NCBI GenBank assembly: GCA_964658305.1
Contig: OZ210885.1
Location: 8,370,001 to 8,434,000, forward strand
Reading direction: 5' to 3'
DNA length: 64,000 nt
From: Leptogorgia sarmentosa
Taxonomy: Eukaryota
Shown: piece after piece, positions 2,728-61,875 of the stretch
Numbering within the stretch: position 1 is the stretch's first letter
How the letters are laid out: each line of letters opens with the position of its first letter
Notes under the pieces: model-generated
The model's database searches: none
The model's input: only the letters and a program-made list of their open reading frames with translations
Told to the model about the DNA's origin: nothing
Position numbers and translations under genes: made by a program

Positions 2728-3053
2728 TCAACCTTTCGTTTGGAGTTGTTTTGAATGGGAGGATAACTTATTAAGACGAAGGAAGCAGACCCGACCTCCT
2801 TCCAGGCCAACACAAACCATTCCATGTGAGCCACATGCGATGGCTAAAACATACCGGTCGAAATGAAACTCTTCAACACACTCTCCATTTGGTAGGTTCC
2901 ACAGTTTCAGCGTCTTGTCATAATCCGAGCATGACAACAGTGATTCACTTCCAGGCGCTAATGCCAACGCTCTGATCCAGCCAGCATTTTCAATTGGAAA
3001 TCTATAGAGAACCTTTCCAGTAATGAAGTCCTCAATCACCAAAGAACCATGAC
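2728..3053 (-). CDS. Exon 16 (terminal): WD40 and stop
   Basis: WIRALALAPGSESLLSCSDYDKTLKLWNL...VGLEGGRVCFLRL...KG*. The GxxxGxVxxL ending is typical of STAND-WD40 proteins. Confidence 0.88.
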
Positions 3054-27000: not shown

Positions 27001-30000
27001 CGAAAAAGTCTAATGAAAGATCGTAAGAACTCTGCGTTGGTGCAATTACTCAAAACCAGAGTGTAACAGTACTGAACAGTACGTACACTGTAGCATGTAC
27101 CGCAATGGGAAATTTTCATTGCTGCATTTCATCATTATTAGTTTGCACATGTATTCATACTTACGTTTGGGAACATAACTGTGTTTAACTGCTCTTAACT
27201 GTTAACCTAAGTGCTTTTTCATGTCACTGAGTAGCTGTTGAAATTGACTGATTAAATTCAATTATTATCACATTTATTCAAGCAACTAACCTACCAAGTT
27301 CTAACAGTACAGCACAATGTTTGTCACAACAATTATAAAACAGGTCAAACTATATCAATTTTGTCTGTTGGAATAAAAGCGTCTGAGGTCAAGATGGACA
27401 AGATAAGTCAAACGACACTTGGCTATATACCTTGGCAATGGACAGTATATCTAAAACAATATTACTTTACAAACAACATTCATGTTGGCTTCCATTTGTT
27501 ACTTTATCTATATAATTTCATTAGTCAAAAACAAACGGTATAAAATGCTGTCATATTCTGTTGTGAGCTTGTAATTCAATTAATTCTCCTGTAATTGAAT
27601 TCTATTATATATTGTAGTTCAATTCGATATGTGTGCATTAATTAGATACATGTGAAACGGCTAGAATTGTTCTTGGTCGATATACCCCTATGAAATGCAT
27701 TTCAGAGCAGTGGCGTAGGATGGTGGGGCACTTGGAAGGAGCCCCCCCTAACTTTCACGGTAATAAGAAAAAGTGTCCTTTTAAAAAAGAAAGTGCCCTT
27801 CTTTCATGCCTAGGATTTGTACAGCTTTCTGATAGACATGAGAATTTGCCCAAATGTACTAAAATATTTTGTAGGATTCCATCATTCACTAGCTTTTAAA
27901 TGTTTTTTTTTGTGAAGATACCGCCTTGCTGATTGCAAGTTGCAAATACAGGAATAAGTTTTCCCAACCAAAAATATCACATCTTCTTGTTGCTAAGTTA
28001 AAGCAACTTCTAACAACAACAAAGCGTTCTAAAGTTAAAGTTGAAACTTATTTAAAGTTGCAACATTTAATAGTAAAGGTTTGGATTCTGTTCTCCTTGT
28101 GCCTCCCCCTCCCCTACAAACTACAACTTGATTCGTATGCCCTTGTTTCATAGCCTGCTTCTATTTTTAGGGCAGACTATTATTACTTACAAGAGGTCTA
28201 AATGCTAATAAAATATACAATACCCGGCCTAAATGCCAAGTCTTTTGAATCTACTTGTACAGTATCACAATTTATACATTAAGGTTTGCGACACAAGGTA
28301 ATCAGTTGAAATATACACACAAGCAAATTGTCTCAAAGTATTTTTAGAAAGCTAGCATAGATAAATCAATAGCCATTTTAAAATACTCTTAGCATATACA
28401 AATACAACCAGCCTAAAACTTTGAAAGAAATCAGAAAGTCCTAAAATAGTGCTTGTACATGAAAGCACTGGTTACCACCATACTAACAATTAAGGAAAGA
28501 CATAGCCTGCGCGCAGTCTCAACGGGGGAGGGGAAACTACGGGATCCCGTAGTTTCCCCTCCCCCGTTGAGACTGCGCGCAGGCTAGGAAAGACATTGCT
28601 TTCTTTCTAGGCATAATTTTTCATTGCAATATTACAATGCTGTTGCAAGCAGGTATTTTTGTGCAATAATTCGGAAAATTTCTTCCAAAACATGATATTC
28701 CCCTCCAATCCTTGTTTTATTGAACCATTAAGGAAGTTTATAATAAAGAATATGGTTTATCCGAATGAAATAACAAATATAATTCTGAAGAGACTCTATT
28801 GAAGTAAGATCTTCAAAATGTTATGAAATATTAACTCATACAGTATTACATACCAGTTGCGACAACGCATCTCACCCCATCTGTATGGCCAACCAAACTG
28901 GCCTCAAAATTTAGTGTATCGGCTTTCCACAACTTGATAGTCTTGTCAGGAGATGACCCATCAGTAGCAACAGTAGCAATGAACTGTCCATCTTTGGTCG
29001 TACACAGCGAGTAGACTCTCTCAGGAATACTTGTTGAGAGTTTTTTTCCGGTAGATACACAATACATTTTCAGCCCTACAACGCATGATGGATACTCGTC
29101 AGACTGATGTTTCAATAATGTCTAACTCTAGACGATTTTGTGAAATCTTGTTTTTAATTGTGTCCCTCTACGGCGCTGAACATGCTCTGGCTGTTGCTGG
29201 CTTATGTTTTTACACTGCGTTTCACTGCGCTCTACACGACGTTTACAGTTAACCGCTGGTTTGAAGATACGCAGTCGCTGGAATCCTCAAACCAGCTGTT
29301 GCAATTATTGTTTGAATATGAACAATTTGTACTTTTGGCGAAGGTTGAGAGGTGCTACTCAAACAGACGTATCTGGTTTTCCCAGGAAATCATTTTACTA
29401 CAGCTACGTTGTAAAACTGCTGTTCCTGGCATCAAACACAAAAAGAATTAGTGAACATGGTCCAATCACACGATACGATGCCGTTTGTAAATTTCATAAA
29501 CCCACCCTATACCATAGCCACATTGTGATCAAATTGTATGCATTGTACAGAGCATCCATACCAGTGGTAGTGTTGGTAAAACTTGGTTACAGATCGCGAA
29601 AGTTAGAACCGTAAAGCAAGGGCCATGTACGCCAGTGGGCTTCGCTTCAAAATAATGAAAATATACTTTGTTTTCAAATGTAGTCGATTATATACAAGTT
29701 GTAACCTGTTGTACAGTACAACAGGTTACAGGTACGAGTTCAGTAAAATGGTCGAAATGTACGACGGATTACAAACGAGCTCTCTTTCTCTCCAACACGT
29801 TTCCGAAAGTTGAAATACAAATTTTTATAAATCTTTTTTTTTCACTGAGTATATACCGCACGAAATAAAGACAAACACCGTTGAAATCCTAATAAAATGA
29901 TCTTTCGAACGGTGGGTTTCAAACGCATGGTAGTTAAAACACAACACACAAAAAAATAAAGATTGATCGTCGGAAACGTAAGGCATATTAGCATCTATCT

Positions 30001-33000
30001 GAGAAAAACAGAGTCCAATATGTTGAATTCCATGTCCTTATTTCTCCTTGAAGCCGCATAGTCATGAAACCTGTTTTATGAAACTTCATCTTTCCTTAAG
30101 GAAGACCTTTTTACCTATACCCTTGTAAAAAGGTAGAAATATAAAATTTTCTACCGCGATTTTATTGGTACTACTCCGAAGAACTAAAAATCAGTGGTTG
30201 CAGAGTTAAGGTCGAACTAAAGGTCGAAAATATGCATCTAAGTATTGTGGGTCACATTTTGCTGCGATGTATATTTCAATGGCTTCAAGTCAATACATTT
30301 TCCTATTGCATTATATATATATATGAACATTGCTTCGATATATAGAGTTTTTTTACGCTGAATAACAGAGTGTATTTTTGTCCTTGTTGGGTGCGTAAAA
30401 CTAGAGATACGGCAGCCAATTATAGTCATAGGAAGAATTCGACCTAAATTAATATAGCGTTCGGGAGAAAGAGTACTTTTCGTAAGAAACGGGAGTAACC
30501 TAGAATGTATTAACGATTATGCTGCATGAAACTGAGGAAATGCTTCTGAATTTCACATATTCGCTACGAAGCACAAGTTGAATATATACAGTGAATATTT
30601 AACTCAATGTGATGACTGCGTCGCTAATTAGAGTGTACTCCCGCTCAAATATGGAACGTTACGTGAAACCCAAGAACTGAAACGATATGCATCAATCCGC
30701 TTCATAAACGTTCTTGTATTAAAATGTGAATTTTATTTATATTTTTTTAGTAAATAGCGATGTACACAGTGGCGTAACTACTAGCGGGCCAACCTGGCCG
30801 GGGGCCCTGGGAAGAGGTTTCTTCAGGGCCGTGCCTAATGTGAAATTCAAACAATTTTTATTGAAATTGAAGATGCAAAAAAAGTTCGAAGTTAACAAAA
30901 TGTTTGATATCATTCAGTAGCTAGCTGAAACAATTTTGTTGCCTTTTAAATTGTGCTTGGATGTTGACAGTATATTAATTGTTGTATATTACAGTCAAAC
31001 TTTTACTGTTGTCATTGTTTCTGCTTTATAGGAACTTATTTTAGTGTGCTTCTTTTTACGGAACGTTTTTGTCTTTTGGGTATAATTGAAGCAGAAGAGA
31101 TGTTAAATAGCTATAATATGTTCGATAAGAAATAGCAGAATTAAAATGCATATCATATGCAGAATTCAGGAGAATATTTCGTAGAGTTAGCATAGTAAAA
31201 ATGTGAAGCTAAGAGGTATAATTAAGAGGCCATCCACAACAGTTCAACCGAGGGCCGTCACTGGAGATTTACGCCATTGAATTTGCAACGTAAAACAAAC
31301 ATTTTGTGAACGTACTTTCAAGTATTTTTATTTGAAGAAAAAATAATTATTTTAATTTAATAAAAGTATTCCAATATTCAATTTGGTACCGGCGGGGTAA
31401 CATATTTCCGAAAGTATGATCATTTGCGGAGTTATTTGACAAACATAATATGAAAAGGATTTAATTTTTTCTCCAATGGCATCGTTGCTGGTGTTGCTTC
31501 AGAACCGTTAAATCCGTACACGTCAGCAAAATCTTATTTCTTATCGAAACTCGCGCACTTTAATACTAACTTTTAAGCAGAGCGGAAGTCGAGAAAACGT
31601 TTATGCAAATTTTCGTTTACCTATTCTGAACAACATTTTGATATCCTTGTTTGATTTGTGTTTAAGATGCTTACCATCGTATGTTCCAATAAACACTCGC
31701 TGATCATCTGCACTGAAATCCAGAGCATCAACTGCACTCTCCCCTTGGAACACAAAAAGCTGTTCATAATTATCCATTCTCCAAAGGATTGTACTTCCGT
31801 CCGACGACCCCGACGCTAGTATTGTTCCACTTTGTGACACAGCCAAACAGATAACAAAATGTCCCCGTAGTTGTTGAACTTCTCTACCTGTTTATAAAAT
31901 AAGATAGCACGTACAAAAAATGGTGTAATAGATCATTTTCACTCATAATCGTTACTACACCGGAAGTATTGTTCAAAACACTGCGGCGATAAAATAAATG
32001 ATTGAGACAAGTAACTATAACATTAACTAACCCATCAGCTACACTCTGTTTACACCGCTTACTTTCATTTTTACTATCACGTAGCTACAGAAACTTAAAC
32101 AGCAATGTAAGTGATAGACAAACACCGAAACGATTGTTAATACTAAAAACAAAATAACAGCAATTATAAACTGTAACAGAATTAACTGTGGCGTTTTTCA
32201 CAGGCGTGTGTTTTTATTCGTTAATTCTTGGGATTTCATAAAGGTATGCCCTCATCTTTGTTGTGCAAGTCCATAGATATAGGTATCGAGTCAACTGGGG
32301 TTGATTGCGAATTCTACGATAATATAAGTGTGCGAAATATTTTTGTGACGTCTTCAACGCTTGGGTAAGATTCGCTACTGGTCCCCGTTGGCTCAATAAC
32401 TAAAGTGGTAGAGTAACGGTCAAGTAACCTATACACGTTATCTATTGCTGTTTTGATGTAACAAATTATATATTCGTTTATTAAATCGTAAATTTCACGA
32501 GAACATACTATACAAACATGGGTTTAATTGTAGAGCAGCCACACTTATGGCTGTTTTCCAATGCCGAACAGTTTACTGAAATTTATAATATATTTACCAC
32601 TGTTTAGATAAAATTTAGCGGCTGATGTTGGTGGTAGAGCAGAAAGTAGATAATTGGAAAGCATGCATGAGGCCATAAACAGGAAATGTTCTATACAGCG
32701 AATACCAATGATTGCACAGGAATGTTGTCCTACTTGTATTTGTAATTACTGAACTTTCACATTTTAAAATTGGCAGATATCATTTATGCACACGATTTCT
32801 TAATAATTGTATGTTTTATTGTTTAGAAGAAATAATATGTCACCCTGTCCGAATTAGTTTTTATAGTTTGATTAATATGTTGCAGACAAAAGCATTCCCT
32901 CCAGCCATTTGTGAGATTTTTTTTATTTTTTACCCAGTAAACATTGATCCTGTTCAAGAAATGACTGAATTAATTTTTATCCCAGCGTAAATCTGGACGA

Positions 33001-36000
33001 ACATGTCTCTTCAAGTATCTAATCCAAATTTCAAATATCATCATATGACGACGACTGCCGTACATGATTGGCTAATTTTCTAATGAATTATTAATTACTT
33101 TGAGTGTAAACCTTTGTTCCCTCACCCATATCAACTGCATATTAACTATATTCTCATTTCAATTGAATAACCAAGATCAAAGCTTTTGTTTAGCTAAAAA
33201 GGCATGTATGAATATGTTTAAAATATAATGATAATATATACGCTATAATTCAATTTGTCTGCTTCCAAAACTGAAGCTTTTCTCAAAAACCGGGGCAGTC
33301 GGCTACAGGTCTAATTATCCGTGTAACGAAATAAGATTTGGATGGCGTGATATTATTAATACTTACTTATTTGCGCGAAATATGACGTGTGTATACAGTG
33401 GTTTATTTTACACTGCACCAATATAGATTTTTTAAATTTTATCAAACTGTAACTATCACCAGACATTTCTGTCATTTCTAATAGAAAGACAACTGCATTG
33501 TGCCTATGTTCAAAAATGGTGTCATAGCAATTTTGTAGCAGAGGATTATGCTGAACAAAAACCAAGCATAAATTGTGGTATCAACGGCTTTGTTGTTATC
33601 AACGCAACGTTAAGCCAAGCATTATAACGTCTTCAAAGCAACGTGAAAACTGATTACAACGTGACCAACTCGACGAGCTTTCCGAAAAAACAAATTTTTA
33701 TGCTGAACAAAAACCAAGCATAAATTGTGGTATCAACGGCTTTGTTGTTATCAACGCAACGTTAAACTAAGCATTATAACGTCTCCAAAGCAACGTGAAG
33801 GCTGATTACAACGTGAGAGCTGTAACTTCAAGTTGACTACACAGCAACAATCACATTGCTTTAGCTGAACCTGTGTAGCTGTTTCTTGAAAAAATTTCAA
33901 CATCTATTTAAAGCACAAAAAGGTCAGCAGCCATTTTAAAGCTGAAATTTAGACCCCGTCTTCGAGTTTGTGGCGTTGTAGATCTTAAGGTCCCTACTAA
34001 ACAATTATTGGATGAGGCTGAGCATGATATCAAGTATTATTCAGACTGAGGTCAATGTTATCTGCCGAAGCGAAGCTGAGGCGGATAACATTGACCGAGG
34101 TCTGAATAATTCTTGATATCATGCAAAAGCCGAATCCAATAATTGTTTTATTATACATTTAAAAGAGAGTTCACTTTCATTCAGCGAAGCAAATTTGCTG
34201 CAGGACATTGTTTGTTTTTTTTCGCGGGCTTTTAGCTTCAAGCTTTTGACAGCGCTAGGGCTTGGGCACGAGAGAGTCCAATAATTTTTTTTTTGGATGC
34301 AAGTTCGATCCAAAAAAATAATTATTGGACGCTGATGACGTCATCGGCGGAAAATACGTAATAAATACCGAATACTGAGAATTAGCCGGTGCTTTCTGAC
34401 CAATCAGGAACGAGAATAAATTTTAAATGTATAATAATTATCAATTATTGGACGAGGTCGAGCAAAATATCGCGATTTGTCGGCGGCGAGCAGATCAATT
34501 ATTTGCCGATGCCGAAGGCAGAGGCAAATAATTGATCTGCGAGCCACCGACAAAATCGCGATATTTTGCGAGATCTCGTCCAATAATTGTTTTATTATTC
34601 ACTTACAAAGCATACTTAGCTACAAGGTAGACGTATACAACGAGCTTTACATAAAAATTTTATTTCATAAAAAAATAATACTGGTTTACAGAAAAAACCT
34701 TCTTCTTTTAAATTTTTCTTTCTTTTAAATATTGCCGGAAGACACTGAGTGACGGCCGTTTTGGTGGCTTTTTTTGTATCATCTGAATTTTTTTCCTCTA
34801 GTAAACAAGACAGCTCGTCTTCTGGTAGTTCAGGAAAACGAGCCGCCATTGTTTACAAAAAAGTGACGCATTGCGCATGCTCAGACTATTATTTGCAGGT
34901 GAGCAACCTTTTTAACAAATGCGCATGCTCAGACTATTATTTGCACGCAGTTATTTGCAGGTAAATTGACCAATCAAAATTGAGAATACTATAAAGTGAA
35001 TAATAATATCAATTATCGGAGACGCCGCACGAAATATCGCGAGTTATCGTTGGCGAGCTGATCAATTATTTGCCGATTCCGAAAAGAGAAGCACGTAAGT
35101 AATCTGAGAACAACCGATATATAACTGAAGCAAAGCATAGCCACATTGCCTAGAGTGCATAATAGGACGAGCCCTGACGCCAGTGGCCAGTGAGCTCCAT
35201 GAGATTATAGCGCCGTAAATTTCCGATGTAATCAACTACTGTACATGTGACAGCAGGTAAGTTAAACATGCACTTTATTAAACTTTTTATCTAGTTAATT
35301 CATTATCAGCGCTAACAAAAAGAATTGAAGCTGAAGGCTAGTACAACGTTTCTTGACAAGGGGTGATTTTGCACTGCAAAGTTTTGTTAATTAATAACGT
35401 CACCCGAGTGGCTTTGCGAAATTGAGAGCGATTTCAAATTTGCTTAGTTTTTTATTCACGTATATCGCGCAGCCGCTCAACTTGCATAACTCAGAACTGA
35501 TGATTCTTACAAATGTGAGTGAGGATATGGTTGCACATATAATTACAATTACAAACAGAGGCGGCATTGAATCTGTGTTTTATCCCTTTTCCGGACTGAC
35601 GATCGGTCAAAAGAAAAAAAAACTATTGAAAACCCCAAACCTTGCCATTAGTTTTATCCATAGTACGTTACCACACGGTTACCTACCTGTGTCAAGATCA
35701 AAGATTGTGATTGAACCATCCAATAAACCACAAATGACAAGGGTAGAGGATGAAATATTGGACGTCGCTAATGAGCATACGCTGGAATCAAGCGTTTTTC
35801 GAAAGATCTCAGGGCCTCCAAGATCTAAACATGAGAATTCCGGGATAAGACGGCAAGTCTCTCTGCATGTTGCACGGAGTTGTTCTAATAGCGTCTTTAT
35901 CCCCGGAAACTCTTCATAAGATAGCAGTCTGCCTGGAAAACAAAAATACACAACATTATTAACGTACGTAACAAAATCATAACATTTAAAATAGCTATAT

Positions 36001-45000: not shown

Positions 45001-48000
45001 TGTGTGTAGGTTCAAAACAGAATATTTTAAACTATATACGATTTCGTTTGTTTTGTCTCGCGCTTAATAAACGCACAAATCCATTTTATTACATGCTACA
45101 AAATCTATTTTCCTGGGATTGAGAGTTTCAACCATTCTGTGCGGCAAATTGATACAATTGTCGTGAAAAGGATATCAATTTTGTGTGCGTAATACAAAAA
45201 TATACAAATTTTGAAAACTTCACAGGGGTATATTCCTCGCATTTTATACCATTTCGCAACCAAACTCTGCAATCTTACTAACTTTGGAATGCTCTTTAAC
45301 GCTGTTATTTTGAATTGTATATTATTTCGAGGTTTTTGAAAATTTTCTCTATTATGTAAGCGGTCCATTGACGCCCTTTTTACAATGCCAGGAAGCATAA
45401 AACATCGCTTCGCAAAACAAAAGTAGAAAGACTGTTAAAGTTCTGTGAATTCGTAAAGCACCGATCTCATGCTTAACACCAAAAAATACTTTACTCCAAT
45501 ACAACAGAACGTTACTTCCTACAGTTTTGTAAATTCTTAATATTATTGATTATTTAATGTCTAACTGAATTTGATTCCAATCTCCAATAATATATGGTGT
45601 GGGTGAATGACAGTCACTGTGAAAATTGACGGATCGCAAGCATACTTTGTGTGAATCATGGGCGTGTATTACCCATGGAGACGCATCATATTATGTAAGA
45701 ACCGCGTATACATACGAACTAGCTGGTTAACAACAGAGAATCTTTGTTTTCGGATAGCATGCCTAATGGAGTATTTATAAAGATAGGCATAACATTCATG
45801 AAGTAATACTTCGCGTTATATAGTGTGGTACCAATCCAAAACAATTGCCATTCATCTACATGCAAGCGTACTTGGGCAGTGGTGGTAGCCGTTTCGATGT
45901 ATCGAGCAAAGACCCTTAGTCGTTAATTAGTAGTTGAGTCGGGGGAAAACACAAGGGTTTTTATATTAGTGAATATATGGAAACCAAGTAAAAACCAATC
46001 GGATGGATTTGATACACCAGTTTTCGAAAGCCTTCGCCAGAAATGTGGACTCTTACGTATCGTGTAGGCAGTGAAACAAAATTTAGCAAAAAAAGAAAGT
46101 AATTACCTAACAGCTGTGGACCAATAGAATGCAAATTCTTCTCGATAACCGCGAAAGACCGCATCAACGACGTCTTGAGCAGTTCGATTTCTTTCGAGGG
46201 CTGGTCCAGAAAACGAAAATCTGACATTAAGAAGGGGAGATCGAATTGATTCACCTTTTGATAAAGCCAGTCAAAATTGAAGAACAGTTTATGTAGTTCA
46301 TCAAATTGCTCGGAGGAGTGGAGGTGATAGGTCAGGTACTTGAAATAATAATCCTTGTTGCCTTCAAATTTTCCCCAATCACCGTTCTCGCAATGACCAC
46401 GAAGTGCCTCCACGAACAAACACTGGACAGAACTTAGTTTGCCTCCCATTTTTGCACGTGCAAAACCCAAAAGGAGATCGTGGAGACGGTAGGTCTTCTT
46501 TCCATGTAAATCAGATCCTGAAAATTAGCGTCATAAGGCGAATTTCAATTATTAAGTGTAAAATTTTGGTTCGTGATCGCTTTCTTTTGAAATGCTTGCA
46601 ATTTAATGTTAATGAGAATCGTTGACTGTTTGTATTTCAAAATAAAGCGTTCGCTAAAAGTCGATCGCGCGCCATTTCGCACTGAATTAAATTCTGCCGT
46701 TAGAGAACATAGTCACATATGGTGATTCGAAACGTTTTTGTACAGGACACTAGAGCAGTCTGGGACTGCAGTCAGGCTATAGTACAGTAATTTTTCAGAT
46801 TTAGTATACTCCAGGGCGATGGAAGTATTTTCCATTCAATTCCATTTGTTACTCATCTAGCAATGCCAGAGGAAAACACGGAAAATATTGGGCAAATGAA
46901 CGGGCAAATTTGGCTTGCCCACATATGAGTCAACATATGATTATAGCTGAAAATTAATTTCCTTAGGCTTGTTTGCAATTGACGTTGGTTTGATTAAATG
47001 TTCAGCCTAACAACGTGTTGACAGTTAATATACAGCTTTCGCAAAAGGAGCTGTAGTAAAAAAATATTTCAGAAACTTCTCGTCGTAAGCGTGAATTTCA
47101 TTTCATTATGGTGCATGAAGCAACAGACAAATTTAGCGATCGCAAAAGTTCAAAAATAAGACAACAAGCACAAAACTAACATCATAGTTGGAAACAGCGT
47201 GCTGAAATTAGTATGAAAGCAAAGTTTGAAGAATAGAAATGATAAAATGGGGAAATTGTGCCCATGCAAATTTAGCACAATTTACATACTATTTATGACG
47301 CACAAGTAAGTTAATACACATTATCGTCTGAAATGGATATAATTTACTTTGTGCTGATAAAATAGTACACAAAATGAATGTGTCTGGCAATGATATTCCC
47401 ATTTTATGACATTTCTTCTTTAAACTTAGCAATTATGGTAATTTTTGCACGCTGTTTCCAACTGTGGCGATAGATTTTTGTCTATTATCATGCACCCTGT
47501 CTTCATTTACCTTGTTGAATCATCGACTTCTTTTCGAGCTCATCAAGTATACGTCTTCCTTCACGACGGCTGCACGAAGTTCTTCCGGCTACTTTGGAAG
47601 ACCAAAACAGCTCAAGAATGTCTAATGGTACATCCGTATCTTCTGGAAATAAAGCGAAATCTAGAAACTTTTCTCGTATTTCTTCGTCCAAATGTTGAAA
47701 GCTGGCGTTAATGGCTGTTAAGACGTTATCGTAAGGATAAGCTTTGGCGGGATATATTGAACGTAATTTTACCAAGTCTGCTTTTTTGAGGTCATTTAAA
47801 ACGTCTTCCCAGTCTTGTTCGTCGCGAGTGTCGGCTAAACTTGAACCCACAAGGGACAGAGCTAGCGGTAGATCGCCACAATGGTTTAACATTTCCTCTA
47901 TAATTCGCCGCATGTTTGAGCTAAACTCGGACTGCTCGTCCTCGGTGACTTGGGCGCTTTGATACAAGAGCTTGTAAGATCCAGTCCGTTTTAAAAAATT

Positions 48001-51000
48001 GAGTTTATACAAAGCAGAACCTCGTAAACCGCGAACAACTTCAGAATTCCTTGTAGTTATTAATAATTGGCATTTTCCAGAGAGATGATCAAATACAGAA
48101 GCGTGGTTTACACTCCAAACATCATCAAGAATCACCAAGCAATCTTTTTCACTCTGCAATACATACAAAACTGCTTTACATACTGTCGCTGTGCTGATGC
48201 TTATCGAGTTTCTTGTCGCATTGGTAAGATCATAGGCGTACGGGCACATTTTTTTGGGTGGGGCTGGGCTGAATTTGCCCGAATTACATGACGTCATAGA
48301 TTTCATGACGTCATCATAATATTATATAATCTGAGAATACTATAAATGAAAAGCTTTCCTTTGAAGATATAAAAAGAAATATGTCGTCCCTAGCCATTTC
48401 AATTATAAGCTAAATATATTCATTACGATTTACAGAGAAAGAGAAAGTTACTAGCGTAACAACATTTTATCTAATCACCAGACCGTCGCTGCCCGAATGA
48501 CAAGACAATTTTTGCCCGAATAGATGAATTCTCAAAAAATTCGAGGGGGCTGCAGCCCCCCCAGCCCCCCCCCCCCCCCCCCCCCTCGTACGCCTATGGG
48601 TAAGATTAACTGGATCGAAGCTGAAGCAACGTTGCCACTGCTTCAGAATTATCAATAGATGGGTAGCCAACCGGTAATTGGAGAAGGCACAATCATATAT
48701 CCGCGTTTACAAAGTTCAAAGACACTAGATTTCGAAAAAGTCATTAAGAATACGAATATACATGAATATGATCCCCGCGCATTATCGGGCTATGTATGGT
48801 ACTGATTAAAAGGGCGACCCTCACCTAGTGTATCGTCGTCTTTGTCATAGGCATACTGTAAGTGGTGAAAAGCTTACAGTGTGTTCGTTACTTTGCAACG
48901 AAAAAACCTGATATCCATCTCATCACGCTAATCACTTTCTCGGTTTTCCTCTTATGGCGGAATCAGTGGGAGTTTACATAACGCGCTATTTGCATCACCA
49001 GTAACGTAACAATGATTTTGTGTAATAACGCATCATGAGTATTACAAAAAGTTAAAATAATACACACATACCGTGTTTGCTGTGACCCAGGATTGCGCTG
49101 CCCGGATGTCAGTGAACGAGGCTTCGCCACCAAGAACTTTTATGAGCAGGTTAATGAGTGATAAGCAGTCAGGAGTTTCTCCAATGTCAAGCCATATTAC
49201 CTGACGAGATTCATTGGCAGCCCAAGCGACAGCCAGAGCTAAGATGGTCTTACCCAGACCCCCCATACCACGAATACCAACGACGTCGCCGCTACGATTC
49301 CCGACCACACCAACTCGATTATTTCCTTGTGTAAGTAGTTTCAATATGTCGTTCACTTCTGATGGTCTTTCCACCATGTCACGAGGTAGATTGCGTAATC
49401 CATACGCAACTACAATACAAAATAAACGGAATATGTCTAATATCTACAATCCCGTGCCAAAATGAGACTTTAGCTACTTCAAACATTTTTCTCATATTCA
49501 CACATGAATTTAACCAGATCTTCTTCAATTGGTTTTAACATTCCCCCCAGTGGCGTAACGGAGGGGTGTCATGGTGTCCAGTGACAGGGGGCCCCCGAAC
49601 TTTAGGGGCCCCCGACAAAATGAACATAAAAAATTGATAGCACATTTCTGGGGAATTAAAATACGAAAAACAGGCAGATAGGCAGGTGCCGGTGGAGTTG
49701 CCTATTAATGTGATTATGTTATCATTATGCAAAAAACAAAAATACTACGCAGCCTGCAACCTCCTGGTTTCCTCCCACAGAGGAGGGACAGGGACTTTTT
49801 AATAATTGGGAGTTATGGTGTATCCGTTACGGCGTTACCTGTTCTTTGGAAGAGAGAAGCGAAATTCATTAAATTCAAATTCGGGTTCGAGTCTATTCTG
49901 TAACAAAGTGAGGTTTGCCGTTGTGTAGACATAAGTGGTAAATTCAGCCTATTAATTAGTGGAGCAAAGGGGGCCCCAAAGTAGTCGACTGTCGGAGGGC
50001 CCCCAGAGGTTGCGTTCCGTCACTGATTTCCCCCCTTCCCCCTTTAACAATTCTGCCTCGACGGATCTTTTTGAGCAAACCAGATGGCGTGATATCGTTG
50101 TTACAAGATTGTTTCAGGGGGGAATGGGGGACAAGTAGTCAGTCTGAACAATTTTTGCACGCGATTGATCCCGTGCAAAAATAATGAGACTTTTTCTCAT
50201 TTCATCAGGTGGCAAATATAAGAAATTTCTGAAATCCAAATCTGACCTATTCTCACATGGAATCATGCTGACCTTCAAAAATAATGTGGCAGATAACTTA
50301 AAAGAACTGTTTGTTGATATTTACTCAATGAACGAGGTCAATCCGACGAATAACATAAGCTTTCAACCTGGCTCTTTGAGAAAAGACAAATTGTTGCATG
50401 GCGAACAAATCATGTCCGGAGCTGATGGAAGAGTCATAGAGCGTGATAGTGCTAAATCTGAATGCGAGGTAGTAACACATACTTCGGACATTTCAAATCT
50501 TGAAGAACTACAGGAAATTGTTGACCGATCTCATGAAGTGTGTTGCCCCGAAGTGGCAACATTAACGTGTCCGTTGAAAGAATTGATTTTTATAAAAAGC
50601 AATTCTAGTCTGTTGGAAAAGACCCCCTTGTTTTTTAACAAAATTCTAATTTAATTTGTTTTTGTTGATTCCACATATATAAGTACCCAAGCAATGTGTA
50701 AGTAACCAAAAACGTTTTACCTTAAGCCGCTTAACGAAGTTGAGAGCGATTTAAAAATTGTCTTTTGATACATCCTGTATATATTAACGTAACATTTTAG
50801 TTACGCTATCTCGTGCCATTGTCCATATTTTAAAAGGCATTGCATGTTAATTGCTCAGGTGATTAGAAATATATTTTGATTTGCTGACTTTATAAAATGC
50901 CGTGAATCTCATTATTTTGAGCCGTGTTGAAATTAAAAACTACTGCATTGTGGTGCATACGCATCTATGCAAGTGTTTGTTGGAAATATTAAATCTGTGC

Positions 51001-54000
51001 GTTATTCTTTGAGAGTGAGCAGAGCTTTTGCTGTTTATTGATGTTGTTATCCGTTATACCTAAACTGTAGCTACTGTTTGAAACATGTTATCATGAATTT
51101 ATTAAACTTGTTGTCACGAACTATTCCAGAGGGGGAGAAGAAATATGAATTACAGGGTCGCAGGGCTTGCCCATGCATAGAAAGTTGCCATTGAATATAG
51201 AATAAAATGTTTGCATGCTACAAAGATATAGATGAAAATTAACATAAGAGTGCAATAGAATAAAACGTATGATACAATTACGCTCTTCCTGTTCTATTAT
51301 ACTTTCGCAGGTTGGAACTTGTACACAAAAATCTTGTATAAAACTTATCAGGAACTTTTCACAACAACATTCGATCCCGATTTACCCTGTACTTATTAAT
51401 ATATTCTTTAGATAGGACGTCTCCTTGTCAATCCTAATTTTATCTATTTAAATGCTTGTATAAAAATATTATAATAGTTACCCTAGTAGTTTGTATATTT
51501 TTGTGCATTGGATCCAGTTCCGATCCAATCTCGTGTATTTATTATGTTTGTTACTGAATTAAATTCAATATCATAAATCAAAATGATAATGAGGCACTTT
51601 AGGACATAAATCAAGAGAAGGAGCATTTAACTACAATAAGCAACATTTAAGCATTCTTGTCGCAATTGAGCTGCGTCAACTTTTCACGAGCGTTTTTTAT
51701 TTTGCTGTGACCTACGCAGTTAACCCGCCCAACATTAAAATTCAATTTTAGTGATGATGAGTGCGACAGCGCGTACTGCACTGCCAATGCTTTCGGATTC
51801 CCACTAAATCTGGGAAGTGTTAGAAGACATATTGCATTCCTGTTGCCGTTTACTCTAACGAGATATTTTCCTACAAGAAATTCTTAGAAACAGAACGTTG
51901 AAGACCGGGAAGGTTCCTGGGGGGACAAATTTTGAAAATTGAATGGCTGCCTGATACTCTGTAAATTTTCCTGCATAATATAATCTGCATAAATAGATTC
52001 CCATCTTTCCTAGTTAATTGAAACACTACCTTTTTTCTCTGCAAAATCTGAATGCTCCGTCCTCGGCTTTTTCTGACGACATTCGATTTCATCTGTTTTC
52101 TCCGCCAGACGTTTAAGCTCCATTGAATTCTCAGCTGCAGACCTTTCAACCTCTGTAATTTTGCGAAGCAGTGTGGATTGTATGTTATCGAGTTTCTCCA
52201 TCACTGGATTTATCTGAATTGATAAAATTGATTTAGTAATATTCAATTTACGGGCTGAAACAAATCTGAAATCACTCTCAACTTCACAAAGCGGTTTAAG
52301 GTGTGTGATGTAATAATAGTTTATGGTTTCGAGTGCAATTTGAAAAAAACATGCACGAGTGAGTTTTTCAAAGACATTCAAATTGCACGAGTCCAAAGGA
52401 CGAGTGTAATTTGAAGTCTTTGACAAACTCACGAGTGTATGTTTTTCCAAATAGCATGAGAATTTAAGTAGATTTTACTTGTCTCGCTTTGTTCGACCGC
52501 TAATATACGGAGATGTTTTGCTTGTCCACCGAGCACTTGCTTGAACGAAGAGAAATCTCTGTCTCGTATTATAAAAAGGTTGTCATCATCGACTGCTGTT
52601 AATATCACTTTTAAGCTGTCTGCTTCATATTCATCGCCGTTTCTTTTTTAATTCACAGTTTTCGTTCAGCATAAAAAGAATCGAGCAAAATATATAATCT
52701 AACACCTCTTGCGGAATATTTTGTACTCGCGCTGTATTTTCTTTTCAATGCACCACTTTCTCCGCACAATCAACCACAAGAATAGATATCTTTCCTGGTA
52801 TTTTCATTTTTCAAACTATTTTTAAGCCCCTCTATCATTTGTCTGTTGCCAAAAAATCTAGAGGCAGCCATTTTTTCATCCTCGAATAATTTCATATTTT
52901 GTTATTGTTCGCCAGAAATGGCTTAATCTGATTGGATAGCTTTGTAATCTCAGCCAATCATAGGACATTAACATGAATTTTCTTTTTTGGCACTGTATTT
53001 CCTTAAAATTGCACTGCTCTCAGCCAATCAGAATCGAGAATTTTTTTCATGTATATTAGATTAGAGATTAAGATGAGACAATATATATGAGCCGAGGACG
53101 ACCTGACAAGTAAAGAGGGCAGGGCCACAAGGATTCGAGAAGAATTAGTTGGAATTGAAAGCGTGTATCGAAAACAATGAATCTTAGGTGACTGAAAACA
53201 ATGAATCTTAGGCGAGATGAGTAAAGTAAAATTGTTAGTTCTTGAATGAAAAAAAGGTGACGAAGAGTAACTAGCGTGGGGTGAACTAAGCTCCAAAACT
53301 GAAAAGAATCAACTGCGGTCTGATATCCTGAAGTTTAAAGACAGTCCTTCTATATTTGGAGCTAGTGCTTTGGCAAACTGAAAATAAAACTCCCAGTCGA
53401 TAAACGATGGAGTTATAACTCTCGCCCAGCAAAGGCGAGAAACCGAAGCCAGTCGCTTATAGAGTTAATTCCCAAATTAAATAGAATTACTGAAGAACTT
53501 CAAGGCAATTACCGAGCAAGTCAAGAATCCTAGGGACAGAAACTACGCATTGTGGCTAGCTAAAGAGAGAAGACGGAAACTCTGTGGACTTGTTTTGTTT
53601 GAACAGCGACGCACGCCCGTGTTCTTAACCGTCTGAGCTTTATCAATATTTTCCTGACTTTAATGGTTGGGATTTTAGGGAAAGGGAAAATTGCTTCGCC
53701 GATCTTTTACGAGCTACCCACATGCGTACCTATTTTTTCCTCTCTTATAAATTGGCCCTTTTTTCTCAAAATTTTCGAATTGCCATCGAATAATTTTTAC
53801 GTCACTGTGAGGACGAAATATTCCAATGCTTAGTCGACACAGATGTAAAGTCGAATACGAGTTAAAAGTTTTGTGACGACATTATACATAAGGTCTATTG
53901 AAATCTGATATGCAAGTTTCCTAGTTTGTAAACTTTTCAGAAATTTATAGTTCAACGTTGGAATAGCAATTTTGCAAGGAAAAATAATTGTTATCTATCA

Positions 54001-56144
54001 AAATTTAGGTTTATCTTGCCTATGAGAATGCCTCAATTGTTTTGCCTAATGGGTTGTCCCAGCCCCTTGGGCTAGTTTTTTTCCCCCTAAAAGAGTATTT
54101 TATTTATCAGTAATAATGTATTTAATAGAGTATTTAAAATATCTAAAAGAGTATTTAATTTATCAGTATGTAGTGTGTTTTTTTTATCAGTACACGCTTC
54201 GTTCTAAGTATTCTATTGCAAACGTGTCCCCAAAAAAGTATGCACATGTTTGACTTGGAACGTTTAACGGGTAAAGCAAAACTCATAAAAACAGCATTAT
54301 TGAAAAAAAGCACAGATTGCGTTCCCACGCTGAAAATTTGCACTCGCTCGCATTTGAAACATGTCTTATATTAATTTGAACAGCGTCTTCCTACTTCTTC
54401 AACGACTGTTAAATGAAACATCAAAAGTTCCTCAAACCTTTGTGGCGTCCAAATCGTAGTTTTTGATACAACGGCAAAGTTCAGCTACACTTTCTGCAAT
54501 TAGTTTTGCGTGGCGACCATCAACAAGAATGTCTGGAAATCATGCAGAAAATTTATCTTCAGTATCACAAACACTATAAATCTACCGCTGCTAATGCGCG
54601 TAGCACGAAGGATACATAAAAAAAAGCATGCCTTGCTGTCCATATATTTGCTAAGCATGGTCTGCTGTGGTTATTAGCAAACGTCAATATGCGCCCAGTG
54701 TAGTAGATAGGAGATAACAACATCAGCAAGCAGCACATGTCCTACCCACAACCTAAACAATGCAAATAGGTTGGACGTTTTGAGTAAAGTAGATTTTTTG
54801 CATGATATAGACATGCAAAAATTTCGAAATAGTACAATCCAGAGCAACAGCGTTAAAGAGTATCACAAAGTTAGTAAAACTGTAAAGTCTGGTTGAGAAA
54901 TGTTTTAAAATGCGAAAAATATGACCCTGTAAAGTTTTCAAATTTTGTATATTTTAGTATTACCCATGCATTTATATCCTTATCGAGAAAAGTCTATCAA
55001 TTTTGCGTGTCTAATACTAAAATGAAAAAATTGGCAAAATTGCGTTAAACATTCCCGACTTTTGAATGATTGAAGTTTTGAACACAAATGTCCAACTGGA
55101 ATTAGTACGATTTACGAAGTCTAATTCATGTGAAAATTTTGATTTTATGCATATGTCAGCATATATTAGTCGTACTATACTGTATATCATGTTGTATACA
55201 GTATTAAAGGCATTTAACTTCTGCACTTATATGAAGGTCTAAAAATAAATCACTGTCACCAATTCAACACTAGATTTCTATGTAAAGTTTCAAAGTATAG
55301 CTACACTATTGGAGAATTTAATTTTTTTTACCTGTTCGACCCCATATAATTTCAACGATTGATCGTATTGAGAATCGCATTGAATTGTATATATGGTAAT
55401 AAATGAATAAAATTGGATGATAATAATAATAATAAATGAATAATAAGAGAAATTCTTTCAACACATGGGGGTTTTCTTACCGGAGATAAAAAATGATCTG
55501 CGCAAAACATATTTAAAGGCATGATGAAATTCCGGCAATAATGCTAATAATACAGTACCTGTTTTATTCCAGAAATCTAGTTCATCACAAATTATTTTTT
55601 CGTCAGCTATTGGTAAATTTAATATTTTGACCAAAGATTCCATTCCTTGAAACGAGGCATTGAACATATGTACTGTCCATTCAGAGATGTTACAATGAGC
55701 CCATGGGTTTCTGATGTCCGACCGAACTTTGTTTGCTTCAGCTGAAGCACCCGAAGATACAAAAGGTGCTGCCTTGCCGATAATAGTCAAAAGAGCTGAC
55801 ATATCCATGGTTTCATCAAATCCAGTGAAATGTGCCATAAAGTCCGTGACGAATAGTTTCGCCAAAGAGACAGGATCTTTAACAGCATAATCATAAGCTG
55901 ATTTAGTACGCTTGTGGATAATGTTATTGTTAATGTTCTGATATTGTAGGTTATGTGTGGAAGGGGGTAATTTCTTCCTTCTGTATGCTGCGAAATCTTG
56001 CTTTTGAATTTCATCAGGTGGTTGGCATAAAGAATGATACCATTTCCCAAGTTCAGTGGCGACAACTTTCCTCAATGCAGGTGCAAGAACTTTGGTAAAG
56101 GCAATGCCAACTAAAACCCAATGTTGTTCTTCCTCTGATATCAT
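2728..56144 (-). CDS. Multi-exon gene (16 coding exons, ~1702 aa): putative HEPN-like N-terminal domain + coiled coil + NB-ARC + APAF-1-type helical domain + WD40 repeats (APAF-1-like STAND/NLR receptor lacking CARD)
   Basis: Exons 55559-56144, 54438-54532, 52030-52213, 49072-49409, 47511-48153, 46107-46517, 35687-35932, 31675-31887, 28854-29075, 25883-26126, 24296-24528, 21837-21934, 16126-16528, 14065-14666, 7794-8058 and 2728-3053. All introns are GT-AG and all phases match. Total 5109 nt, open to a TGA at 2728-2730. NB-ARC motifs and GH...WD/WN repeats are present. Confidence 0.85.
3488..3637. repeat. Imperfect palindromic element
   Basis: taatagaaattag...gtgcgggc / gcccgcac...ctaatttctatta. 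Confidence 0.55.
5452..5600. repeat. ~150-bp hairpin of the same element class
   Basis: aattattgaat...gtaggatatggggaattattcag...ctgaataattcctcatatcctac...attcaataatt. Confidence 0.7.
6572..6668. repeat. Palindromic mini-element
   Basis: gataccccggttccggtttacgggtac...gtacccgtaaaccggaaccggggtatc. Confidence 0.75.
7794..8058 (-). CDS. Exon 15: degenerate WD40
   Basis: IDRINATG...IAKWNLNDT...LRINNSGNLVAIL. Boundaries AG/GT, phase 0 to 1. Confidence 0.72.
10013..10097. mobile_element. 85-bp hAT-like mini-MITE
   Basis: cagtggcgtaac...gttacgccactg, with near-TSD aggatgct/aaggtgct. Confidence 0.7.
10470..10925. mobile_element. Hairpin-ended element of a different family, abutting the 10932 element
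   Basis: ~150-bp hairpin at 10476-10622, then tattatacc...ggtataata. A second internal hairpin lies at 10763-10820. Confidence 0.7.
10932..11634. mobile_element. Hairpin-ended element (Crypton-like), copy 1
   Basis: ~110-bp terminal hairpin followed by ttattatgtacacaagcactgga, whose inverse ends the element. A highly similar copy lies at 61183-61875 and a fragment near 7005-7045. Confidence 0.8.
14065..14666 (-). CDS. Exon 14: WD40
   Basis: GHPDDSIVTAIDITSNGKFALSGS...AHKDAISQV...FASGSIGGSVKLWNV. Phase 1 to 0. Confidence 0.88.
14893..15125. mobile_element. Diverged MITE
   Basis: Imperfect ~45-bp inverted ends (ttttgccattacagtcattttgccc / gggcaaagcgactgaaatggaaaa). Confidence 0.5.
16126..16528 (-). 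CDS. Exon 13: WD40
   Basis: MWNLSDG...IIGCEDNHVFIWDW...VISPDGKDLL. Phase 0 to 1. Confidence 0.85.
16596..18195 (+). mobile_element. Tc1/mariner-type fold-back element with ~550-bp inverted arms and a transposase remnant
   Basis: TA|cagtgcgacccacgg...ccgtgggtcgcactg|TA. The middle encodes the fragments LFTDE, TLDGPDDWSKGW, LIGPFRVPEG and NSPNLNPIENLW. Confidence 0.88.
18528..18950. repeat. Tandem repeat, ~146-150-bp unit, ~2.9 copies
   Basis: Units start at 18528, 18678 and 18824. Confidence 0.92.
20781..21389. mobile_element. TIR element (MITE)
   Basis: catggccagaaatgcgcgacagtcagc...gctgactgtcgtgcatttccggccatg. Confidence 0.65.
21837..21934 (-). CDS. Exon 12: WD40 (short; absent from the ORF track)
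   Basis: GDLEWAKHVAVSADDRYVVSLSKEWSSTKSSIK joins in frame to MWNL of the next exon. Phase 1 to 0. Confidence 0.75.
22577..23162. mobile_element. Tc1/mariner-type MITE, 586 bp with ~200-bp TIRs
   Basis: TA|cagggtgtctcaaaa...ttttgagacaccctg|TA. Confidence 0.9.
23730..23980. repeat. Diverged hairpin element
   Basis: ataaacaaataacttca...tgaagtaatttgtttatt inverted ends. Confidence 0.45.
24296..24528 (-). CDS. Exon 11: WD40
   Basis: VLTASLDGSIRVWNL...HSNDVTDIKI...SRDGTFEVWDL. Phase 2 to 1. Confidence 0.88.
25883..26126 (-). CDS. Exon 10: WD40
   Basis: LVSGSNDGTIKIWDL...LKGHESDVTSVAVS...YEGHTDRI. Phase 1 to 2. Confidence 0.9.
27708..28145. mobile_element. hAT-like MITE
   Basis: cagtggcgtagga...ttcgtatgcccttg. 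TSD tttcagag/tttcatag (7/8). Confidence 0.7.
28503..28586. mobile_element. 84-bp perfect palindrome MITE with TAG...CTA ends and a 9-bp TSD (Academ-like)
   Basis: No spacer and no mismatch. GGAAAGACA flanks both sides. Confidence 0.88.
28854..29075 (-). CDS. Exon 9: WD40
   Basis: LKMYCVSTG...DKTIKLWKADT...LVGHTDGVRCVVAT. Donor GTATGT. Confidence 0.88.
30767..31279. mobile_element. hAT-like MITE
   Basis: cagtggcgtaact...atttacgccattg. TSD is degraded. Confidence 0.6.
31675..31887 (-). CDS. Exon 8: WD40
   Basis: LRGHFVICLAVSQSGTILASGSSDGSTILW...VFIGTYD. Donor GTAAGC. Confidence 0.88.
33548..33815. repeat. Tandem duplication, ~151-bp period
   Basis: tatgctgaacaaaaaccaagcataaattgtgg... at 33548 and 33699. 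Confidence 0.88.
33999..35120. mobile_element. Tandem cluster of three hairpin-ended Crypton-like elements (33999-34437, 34440-35006, 35008-~35120)
   Basis: Each starts caattatt/cgga. The first two have a long hairpin, a ttattat.. inverted repeat and a ccaatca..ataataa end. The second contains the ORF start MAARFPELPEDELSCLLEEKNSDDTKKATKTAV. Confidence 0.72.
35687..35932 (-). CDS. Exon 7: end of helical domain and first WD40 repeat
   Basis: GRLLSYEEFPGIKTLL...VICGLLDGSITIFDLDT. Phase 1 to 1. Confidence 0.85.
37335..37527 (-). repeat. 3' LTR
   Basis: Matches the 5' LTR. Preceded on the minus strand by the polypurine tract GGAGGGGGA (37528-37536). Confidence 0.96.
37658..43773 (-). pseudogene. 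BEL/Pao gag-pol polyprotein, disrupted
   Basis: Gag LPTFDG, zinc knuckle CFKC..GH..C, protease MLDPCS, RT YVDD, RNase H FSDAS, integrase HHCC and D..SDNG..E, tail WPLGRI..G.DGLVR. Lesions: in-frame TAA at 41179, frameshifting deletion at ~39880, in-frame TAG at 39084, MITE at 37930-38097. Confidence 0.93.
37930..38097. mobile_element. 168-bp MITE inserted in the integrase C-terminal coding region
   Basis: ~59-bp TIRs (cgtcagctgaggattaacaagg...ccttgttaatcctcggctgacg) and AGTT duplicated on both sides. Removing it restores ...RVQQLINQVWKRW... Confidence 0.92.
43828..43845 (-). promoter_or_regulatory. Primer-binding site complementary to the tRNA-Tyr 3' end
   Basis: TGGTCCTTCGAGCCGGAT, 2 nt after the 5' LTR. 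It is complementary to ...CCGGCUCGAAGGACCA. Confidence 0.85.
43848..44040 (-). repeat. 5' LTR
   Basis: Direct repeat of 37335-37527 with one mismatch (agaagtattg vs agaattattg). Confidence 0.96.
45195..45310. repeat. Dispersed repeat with an inverted, diverged copy at ~54845-54955
   Basis: aatatacaaattttgaaaactt...ctctttaacgctgtt matches the reverse complement of aacagcgttaaagag...aagttttcaaattttgtatatt. Confidence 0.65.
46107..46517 (-). CDS. Exon 6: winged-helix LHD (MHD-equivalent) motif and APAF-1-like helical domain
   Basis: YRLHDLLL...DYYFKYLTYHL...FNFDWLYQKV...LMSDF. Phase 1 to 1. Confidence 0.9.
47511..48153 (-). CDS. Exon 5: NB-ARC Walker B, sensor 1, GxP(L) and RNBS-D-like motifs
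   Basis: CLVILDDVW, LLITTR, CGDLPLAL, FLDFALFPED. Phase 0 to 1. Confidence 0.93.
48231..48598. mobile_element. hAT-like MITE with perfect 8-bp TSD
   Basis: ggtaagat|cataggcgtacg...cgtacgcctatg|ggtaagat. Confidence 0.88.
49072..49409 (-). CDS. Exon 4: NB-ARC N-terminal part with Walker A
   Basis: LPRDMVERP...VVGIRGMGGLGKT (Walker A at 49246-49269)...VIWLDIG. Phase 1 to 0, donor GTATGT. Confidence 0.92.
49548..50025. mobile_element. hAT-like MITE
   Basis: cagtggcgtaacg...cgttccgtcactg. TSD attccccc/atttcccc (7/8). Confidence 0.75.
52030..52213 (-). CDS. Exon 3: predicted coiled coil
   Basis: INPVMEKLDNIQSTLLRKITEVERSAAENSMELKRLAEKTDEIE shows a heptad-like pattern. Boundaries AG/GT, phase 0 to 1. 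Confidence 0.7.
52311..53058. mobile_element. Hairpin-ended element (diverged)
   Basis: Hairpin at ~52340-52455 and a terminal ctcagccaatcagaatcgag...atgtatatta. Confidence 0.5.
54438..54532 (-). CDS. Exon 2 (linker; absent from the ORF track)
   Basis: tttccAG|(D)ILVDGRHAKLIAESVAELCRCIKNYDLDATK|GTttga. 95 nt, bridging phase 1 to phase 0 exactly as required. Confidence 0.65.
55559..56144 (-). CDS. Exon 1: N-terminal helical effector domain with HEPN-like Rx4H motif
   Basis: ORF MISEEEQHWVLVG...VRSDIRNPWAHCN...FWNKT. Donor GTACTG at 55558 (phase 1). Acceptor AG at 56152-56153, 7 nt before the ATG. Confidence 0.8.
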
Positions 56145-59871: not shown

Positions 59872-59921
59872 CAAAAACTTAGGTTGATTTCCACAAGAGG
59901 CGACCGGAGCAAAGATTGTTC
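59872..59921 (-). other. Candidate 5' non-coding exon of the STAND-WD40 gene
   Basis: tttctctAG acceptor and consensus GTAAGT donor around 50 nt. Splicing to 56151 would place an in-frame TGA just before the ATG at 56144. Speculative. Confidence 0.25.
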
Positions 59922-61182: not shown

Positions 61183-61875
61183 ATATTTAACAGTTATTCT
61201 GCGAACTCGAGTCGTATATGCGCTGATAGTCGACGAGGCGCGTAGCGCCGAGTCGACTATCAGTCATATACGACGAGAGTGAGCAGAATAACTGTTTTAT
61301 TATGTACACAAGCGCTGGACAAAAACAACTTCCAAATTTATTTGTATTTTATTAATAACTGAATATAATTTCAAAGTGTTCTATCGCTTTGAAATCGACA
61401 TATTTACAAAAACAGTTTTACTTGATAAATTACACGCCAAAAAGCACGGTAAAAACAACAATTACGGAATTAAAATAGTCAACGTTACGTTTAAACTATA
61501 GCTAGTTTTAAATTTCAGCAGTTTTCATCTGTATTTTTCTGCATTTGAAAGTACAACACAAATTTTACGGTTGTAAAATGTCAACAAACAACAACAAGCG
61601 ATCCAACTCAATCAAGCGATGAATTTTACAGCGTCGAGTCCGGTTTTCCAGATTCAAAACTGCACAATAAACATTTACTCACTAAACTTCTTGAATTTTA
61701 TTCTTTTAATCGGTCGCAAAGACGTTTTTAACTGTTGAAAACTTCAATTCCGGCTTCGCTCTTTCCGCCATTTTGTTTGTTTTTCTCTACTAGCAGGATA
61801 TGAGCTAATATCCTGCTAGTAGAGAACCAATCAGATTGCAGAATAGCTCATATCCAGCCCTTGTGTATATAATAA
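61183..61875. mobile_element. Hairpin-ended element (Crypton-like), copy 2
   Basis: Highly similar over ~690 bp to 10932-11634. Confidence 0.85.

Follow-up and report, generated by a model that had tools for sequence, protein, structure and literature searches.

A predicted HEPN ribonuclease motif at the N-terminus of an Apaf-1-like STAND receptor of the octocoral Leptogorgia sarmentosa

A 64,000-nucleotide stretch of the Leptogorgia sarmentosa genome (GCA_964658305.1, contig OZ210885.1, positions 8,370,001 to 8,434,000; hereafter the window, with positions counted from its first letter) contains an intact minus-strand gene of 16 coding exons (56144 to 2728, 1702 amino acids), the first of which encodes the hexapeptide RNPWAH. 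We think that this motif is probably the catalytic Arg-x4-His of a HEPN RNase domain and that this domain would serve as the effector at the N-terminus of an Apaf-1-like STAND receptor encoded by an intact, spliced gene, and we hold with some confidence, from sequence comparison, that the domain is an active nuclease. The observation of such a motif is in itself ordinary, as the same check has already been published for the pearl oyster (PMC9646362); what carries the case here is the conservation of the motif, the gene in which it lies and the relatives of its domain.

The motif and its conservation

On the minus strand, AGAAACCCATGGGCTCAT (window 55712..55695) encodes RNPWAH as residues R145-H150 in the reading frame that starts with the ATG at 56144, and the motif pointed out in an earlier note on this DNA is thus real. 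The surroundings described there were recovered as well: DMSALLTII, said to lie about 30 residues upstream, begins at D114, 31 residues before R145, and the helix said to follow the motif, FNASFQGMESLVKIL, falls inside helix 158-174 of the AlphaFold models. A 228-aa open reading frame (ORF; 55458-56144) was rejected as a stand-alone protein, its final 33 codons being intron sequence. When the 196-aa domain was shuffled 20,000 times, R-x4-6-H arose by chance in 48% of the shuffles, R[NDH]xxxH in 3% and RNxxAH in 0.09%; because the loose pattern arises so frequently, the motif alone is weak evidence, and the case therefore depends on conservation and context.

Among the close relatives (n = 115, query included), R145, N146 and H150 each occur in 114/115 and D114 in 115/115. 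For a wider view, 1.84 billion representatives were searched with a profile (E ≤ 0.001), which gave 553 hits (clusters at 50% identity), and the best 150 of these were aligned, 131 of the rows covering the motif at a median identity of 37%. The motif, for which the earlier note had proposed a profile search and alignment, proved conserved among these distant relatives: R-x4-H is present in 122/131 rows and the exact RNxxAH in 86/131, the Ala being less fixed and frequently replaced by Gly. With Asn next to the Arg, RNPWAH has the form typical of HEPN, Rx4-6H in which a polar residue (N, D, or H) comes after R. Residue by residue, R145 was found in 126/132, N146 in 124/132, H150 in 127/132 and D114 in 130/144 rows, and the 40 rows below 35% identity kept R in 38 cases and H in 38. 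The distance from D/E to R is 29-31 residues in 99/120 distant rows. D114 is the conserved upstream acid, the Ex3[KR] motif being absent, and may be the partner of H150, a role carried over by analogy from the proposal for D134 of CXorf38.

Comparison with the three closest loci gave ratios of nonsynonymous to synonymous substitution (dN/dS) of 0.21, 0.24 and 0.32, by which the N-terminal domain is under purifying selection; 47 loci were compared, and beyond the closest ones synonymous divergence was either saturated or undefined. Motif counts among 53 loci were left out of the evidence because the motif itself had served as one of two search patterns. R, N, H and D114 rank with the best conserved polar positions and purifying selection appears to act on the domain, so it is plausible that the site is catalytically competent, as the earlier note had suggested.

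The large insert before D114 carries a further conserved element, YxNINxN (residues 68-74, window 55923-55943), whose N72 and N74 each recur in 139/143 distant rows; it is possibly a substrate or dimer contact.

Gene structure and receptor architecture

The DNA of the window is of animal type and rich in introns. The exon model was built from splice signals with the relative P0001 as a guide (Table 1), and the assembled 1702-codon frame contains no stop or frameshift, with GT-AG borders at 15/15 introns. The protein runs from the N-terminal domain (1-195, on a single exon) through a linker (196-290) to NB-ARC, winged helix, APAF1_C and WD40 repeats, i.e., the layout of an Apaf-1-like STAND protein, and its nucleotide motifs (Walker A, Walker B, TTR, DLPLA and LHD) are all intact. 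The CARD of canonical Apaf-1 was looked for with Pfam, which gave no death-fold match on exon 1. The NB-ARC of exon 5 matches Apaf-1 and plant NLR, WD40 matches were obtained for exons 14 and 16, and P0288, a contiguous protein, can be aligned to the WD40 half along 924 columns with 54% identity. Introns 1-5 are skipped exactly in contigs from three sequencing runs (X8-X10), which also skip introns 7, 8, 10, and 11, and introns 6 and 9 are backed by loose ends. Joining a 50-nt upstream exon to exon 1 brings an in-frame stop three codons ahead of the ATG at 56144, and M1 is therefore likely to be the true start.

Table 1. Features of the receptor gene (positions in the window)
Feature	Position	Strand	Evidence or remark
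R145-N-P-W-A-H150, predicted HEPN Rx4H active-site motif	55695..55712	-	Conservation, AlphaFold models
D114 (of D-x-S-A-L-L), best conserved acidic residue, candidate H150 partner	55803..55805	-	Conservation
Probable 5' untranslated exon, 50 nt, AG..GT bounded	59872..59921	-	Spliced-contig loose end, 23/28 letters matched
Coding exon 1, aa 1-195, entire CXorf38/Swt1-like HEPN domain (predicted)	55559..56144	-	Acceptor 56152, phase-1 donor 55558
Exon 2, aa 196-227, linker	54438..54532	-	Splice joints in X8, X9, X10
Exon 3, aa 228-288, linker, likely coiled coil (judged by eye)	52030..52213	-	Splice joints
Exon 4, aa 289-401, NB-ARC with Walker A GMGGLGKT	49072..49409	-	Pfam, splice joints
Exon 5, aa 402-615, NB-ARC with Walker B LDDVW, TTR, DLPLA; winged helix	47511..48153	-	NB-ARC E 7e-20, splice joints
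Exon 6, aa 616-752, LHD (MHD-type) motif and Apaf-1 helical domain	46107..46517	-	APAF1_C E 1.7e-11
Exons 7-12, aa 753-1171, helical-domain end and WD40 repeats	21837..35932	-	P0001 guide, spliced contigs
Exon 7	35932-35687	-	
Exon 8	31887-31675	-	
Exon 9	29075-28854	-	
Exon 10	26126-25883	-	
Exon 11	24528-24296	-	
Exon 12	21934-21837	-	
Exons 13-16, aa 1172-1702 and stop, more WD40 repeats	2728..16528	-	GT-AG, open frame; introns 12-15 predicted
Exon 13	16528-16126	-	
Exon 14	14666-14065	-	
Exon 15	8058-7794	-	
Exon 16	3053-2728	-	

Assignment of the N-terminal domain

The N-terminal domain is very likely a member of the HEPN superfamily, and probably a CXorf38/Swt1-like one. At E ≤ 0.1, HEPN_Swt1 was matched in 83/115 close relatives and DUF4559 (CXorf38) in 45/115. 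At E ≤ 0.003, DUF4559 was matched in 16/72 short distant relatives, 6 of them exceeding the curated cut-off, and HEPN_Swt1 in 15/72, 1 of them exceeding it, with the matches covering the motif region. The assignment of the query to the Swt1-like/CXorf38-like family (PF18731, PF15112) is transitive because only its relatives match these profiles. Two AlphaFold models (predicted local distance difference test 89.9 and 96.9) are entirely helical, and in them helix 133-149 ends in the motif and is followed by a loop and then by helix 158-174; the same placement, at the end of a long helix, has been described for the HEPN active-site motif (PMC3710099). In VIA-align the Swt1 C-terminal domain (4pqz) reached Z 7.1-7.3 with a root-mean-square deviation of 3.4 over 120 aligned positions, the longest alignment among the top rows, at a level that unrelated bundles reach as well (see below); other HEPN entries appear under the codes 2hsb, 5yep, and 7ae2 and the names AF0298, HepT, AbiA, sacsin, and Csm6.

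The earlier note had spoken of a Swt1/DZIP3-type HEPN. The Swt1 part of this agrees with the HEPN_Swt1 and DUF4559 matches of the relatives, with the helix placement and with the neighbouring Atlas clusters, which carry DUF4559, HEPN_Swt1, and HEPN_DZIP3 (the last on 11-38% of members). The DZIP3 part did not hold, as HEPN_DZIP3 (PF18738) was matched in 0/115 close and 0/45 long relatives and in 1/72 distant ones, there on a second domain outside the one considered here; a DZIP3-type HEPN was rejected, PF18738 having no match over the domain. CXorf38 proper was rejected too for want of its Zn ribbon: conserved CxxC pairs were not found, the best conserved Cys positions being 151 (81%), 113 (60%) and 15 (54%), and the query itself has the cysteines C40, C151, and C186 only. 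PADLOC matched 1-2 of 76 members, with E no better than 0.002-0.005, and these matches were not used.

Proposed mechanism and alternative explanations

STAND receptors of the Apaf-1 type rest as monomers with bound ADP and assemble into rings upon ligand binding. By analogy, the predicted nuclease would probably be switched on by oligomerisation of the receptor. In the resting state the WD40 propellers and helical domains would keep the NB-ARC as an ADP-bound monomer and the HEPN domains apart, and binding of a pathogen- or damage-derived ligand by the WD40 sensor would lead to nucleotide exchange and ring assembly. The linker of ~95 residues could then let the HEPN domains of neighbouring subunits pair, so that two R145/H150 motifs would make up one composite site; catalysis by HEPN RNases requires that two motifs meet where the subunits of a dimer join, and the bacterial RAZR is a precedent for a HEPN activated by oligomerisation (PMC13017515). 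Cleavage of RNA (host tRNA, mRNA or rRNA, or viral RNA) would shut off translation, and the cell would be killed or silenced with no recruitment of caspases.

Several results count against this interpretation. The N-terminal domain of the query has no Pfam match at E ≤ 0.1, PDB sequence searches with the query and two profiles returned nothing significant, Foldseek gave nothing at E ≤ 0.001, and the Atlas recognition values (2044 and 2022) are below its threshold. In the VIA-align search the HEPN chains (Z 6.4-7.3) are level with bundles from bromodomains, Mob1, and acyl-CoA dehydrogenase, for which Z reached 8.2-8.5, so that a four-helix up-down HEPN fold was not told apart from other bundles. 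The Ex3[KR] motif common in HEPN is absent, no Glu being conserved above 69%, and L97, N72, N74, L119, and W156 are conserved as well as the motif residues in the distant rows, so that conservation fails to single out catalysis. With regard to activation, CARD-less Apaf-1-like proteins have been hypothesised not to oligomerise (PMC10959488). The contigs X8-X10 come from one study, their library type is not recorded as RNA and they may include alleles or close paralogues; we read them as RNA because GT-AG introns are skipped there, unlike in X1, which has none of the splice joints within its stretch. Finally, the grouping of HEPN-bearing proteins in the quick tree of the NB-ARC/helical part (see below) has a support of 82 and is unstarred.

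Four other explanations were weighed. An unlikely one is that the HEPN fold binds RNA or nucleotides without cutting, the motif being retained for binding and the receptor signalling via partners. Non-catalytic HEPN families do exist and Swt1-like motifs are only partly conserved (PMC3710099), a role in sensing RNA has been considered for HEPN-NLRs (PMC8662601), and the nearly invariant N72 and N74 of the insert suggest a further binding site; however, HEPNs of that kind have lost R or H (PMC3710099), whereas here both, together with the polar N, are retained in 122/131 rows, and the domain occupies the effector position of many different switches. Rather improbable is an active RNase that escapes ring control, for example as a standing linker dimer released by conformational change or proteolysis. 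The long helical linker (aa 196-290) would fit such a design, as would the DUF4559 matches that extend beyond the domain into the linker in the relatives P0198 and P0231, the model of CXorf38 as auto-inhibited by a downstream helical bundle (bioRxiv 10.64898/2026.05.28.728550) and the doubts about oligomerisation raised in PMC10959488, but Walker A, Walker B, TTR, xLPLA, and LHD are intact, as in a working STAND switch.

That the motif is a coincidence in a helical bundle unrelated to HEPN, acting as an adaptor in place of the DED, is very improbable: the missing direct matches in Pfam, PDB, and Foldseek, the unrelated bundles at the top of VIA-align and the ease with which R-x4-6-H arises in shuffles are what one would then see, yet 7/72 relatives exceed the curated DUF4559 or HEPN_Swt1 cut-off over the motif region, and the motif placement and the D...RN...H layout fit HEPN. 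A decaying gene copy, disabled by the retrotransposon with 98% identical long terminal repeats in intron 6 and with an irrelevant motif, is hardly credible given the open frame and intron borders described above, contigs that join exon 6 to exon 7 (23/23 letters, though those individuals may lack the insertion) and dN/dS of 0.2-0.3.

Origin of the architecture and spread of the domain

The two halves of the protein have different relatives, the nearest named ones being Dendronephthya and Xenia proteins. In its HEPN domain the query shares 61% identity with Dendronephthya P0002, a protein that also has an NB-ARC-like NTPase, TPR, beta-helix and MYND, and this domain nests among P0002-like proteins in a quick HEPN tree, although the NTPases of the two proteins share 24% identity. 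The NB-ARC/helical part (the chassis) is closest to Apaf-1-like proteins from octocorals and anemones that bear DED or Death domains, at 64-65% identity for the DED-bearing P0285-P0287, 53% for Xenia tandem-Death proteins and 43% for a Nematostella DED protein; among the NB-ARC/helical matches listed, none was named vertebrate Apaf-1. Beyond P0001, the HEPN domain was found in 1/116 chassis relatives (P0288), and in a quick chassis tree the three HEPN-bearing proteins group inside a starred clade of DED/Death-bearing ones, with the Nematostella DED protein outside. From these comparisons, a HEPN exon likely replaced the caspase-recruiting DED pair of an Apaf-1-like chassis.

Of 45 long HEPN relatives scanned, 33 carry a STAND-type NTPase (NB-ARC, NACHT, nSTAND3, or NPHP3_N), two Roc-COR, one AIG1 and one kinase-KEN, and such varied fusions are, as far as domain content indicates, the pattern of a mobile immune effector. 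Among single proteins, P0239 has the same domain fused to kinase and KEN (RNase L/IRE1-type), P0138 has it followed by a DZIP3-type HEPN, and P0141 has two copies, both without the motif His. Among the matches listed as P0298-P0400, those following the cnidarian proteins are mostly NB-ARC-WD40 proteins from prokaryote-type records (~25-33% identity).

Repeats and a retroelement in the window

Intron 6 contains the BEL/Pao long terminal repeat retrotransposon (37329-44040, minus strand), with two repeats of ~199 nt that are 98% identical, a 5-bp target-site duplication, and gag, reverse transcriptase, Pao peptidase, integrase, and DUF5641 spread over five separate ORFs. The flanking sequence (36800-37330 and 44040-44750) has short minus-strand ORFs with no Pfam match, and the interrupted sequence is possibly an older, perhaps helitron-like element. 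A long inverted repeat, whose 542-nt arms are 94% complementary and separated by 520 nt, lies in intron 12 (16594-18197) and ends ~65 nt short of exon 13. A dispersed repeat of ~700 nt (91-98% identical) occurs in intron 14 (10924-11635) and upstream of the gene (61174-61876), and two further intronic repeats were noted, a MITE-like inverted repeat at 22570-23169 (210-nt arms, 98%) and a 146-nt tandem repeat at 18477-18918.

Comparison with known systems

Fusions of CXorf38-family HEPN with NACHT were reported in cnidarians in 2013, with a predicted role in RNase-based defence or death, and HEPN was proposed in the same year as an RNase effector of animal STAND receptors (PMC3710099). Human CXorf38 has RNEIMH at 162, with D134 proposed as the partner (bioRxiv 10.64898/2026.05.28.728550), and the query resembles the family (DUF4559) in having RNxxxH and an Asp ~30 residues upstream (D114 and D134 being matched by spacing only) and in that relatives of its domain pass the DUF4559 cut-off. 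It differs in falling under every Pfam threshold, in lacking CxxC pairs, in its conserved YxNINxN insert and in its fusion to NB-ARC, Apaf-1 helical domain and WD40, where the CXorf38 family has NACHT, DEATH, or dsRBD.

Expansions of DZIP3-like HEPN-NACHT receptors have been described for anthozoans, with D. gigantea having up to 83 (PMC8260672), for stony corals (PMC10236652) and for the pearl oyster, where Rx4-6H was found in 194/202 HEPN proteins (PMC9646362); HEPN-NLRs are called unvalidated in PMC8662601. These HEPN-NACHT and HEPN-NB-ARC receptors (PMC8260672, PMC10236652, PMC9646362) share with the query the order HEPN effector, STAND NTPase and repeat sensor, the intact Rx4H and a lineage-specific expansion, but belong to another HEPN family, as PF18738 has no match in the query domain. 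For five stony corals, the rows examined (30/180 WD40 rows) show HEPN-NACHT-WD40 and HEPN-NB-ARC-TPR, and 7/7 rows with the APAF-1 helical domain have an N-terminal CARD/DEATH or DUF4062 (PMC10236652).

Apaf-1-like proteins with swapped N-termini are known, with CARD pairs, DD, DED, or TIR (PMC2246300). The cnidarian Apaf-1-like paralogues (PMC2246300, PMC10959488) have the same NB-ARC, winged helix, Apaf-1 helical domain, and WD40, at 43-65% identity over the NB-ARC/helical region (Nematostella, Xenia, and Dendronephthya), but the N-terminus of the query is a predicted enzyme and not a death-fold adaptor, and HEPN is not among the N-terminal replacements given in the accessible portions of PMC2246300 and PMC10959488 (CARD, DD, DED, and TIR). 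RAZR and the bacterial Apaf-1 orthologues offer an analogy in that ligand-driven assembly directly turns on an enzymatic effector, which might also be the case here, although RAZR has no STAND domain and the bacterial orthologues carry proteases. A bacterial member of the HEPN family of the query was not identified, no dedicated scan of prokaryotic genomes having been made.

Significance

HEPN-STAND receptors of cnidarians are already known (published 2013-2023), and what appears to be new, as far as the accessible literature goes, is the pairing of HEPN with an Apaf-1-like receptor. The literature searched yielded no instance of HEPN combined with NB-ARC, APAF-1 helical domain, and WD40, although the supplements of PMC3710099, PMC8260672, and PMC8662601 could list one, and it yielded no experimental test of HEPN in an animal STAND receptor. 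More tentatively, at somewhat less than an even chance, the apoptosome may have been rebuilt in octocorals as an 'RNase-some', in which the DED pair was exon-swapped for a HEPN nuclease that would execute death or translation shut-off directly, and the domain may mark a large HEPN family that Pfam mostly misses. Such a receptor could be likened to bacterial abortive-infection receptors, and the same tentative estimate, falling a little short of even, applies jointly to a HEPN family of 553 clusters placed on NB-ARC, NACHT, nSTAND3, Roc-COR, AIG1, and kinase-KEN switches in cnidarians and molluscs.

HEPN is the commonest N-terminal domain of many cnidarian STAND receptors, and the gene described here is a clean test case, being intact and spliced, with the domain on one exon and DED-bearing sisters at 65% identity as natural controls. 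If the domain is active, an apoptosome-type animal receptor would have a caspase-independent, enzyme-based mode of execution, and the gene would give a handle on human CXorf38.

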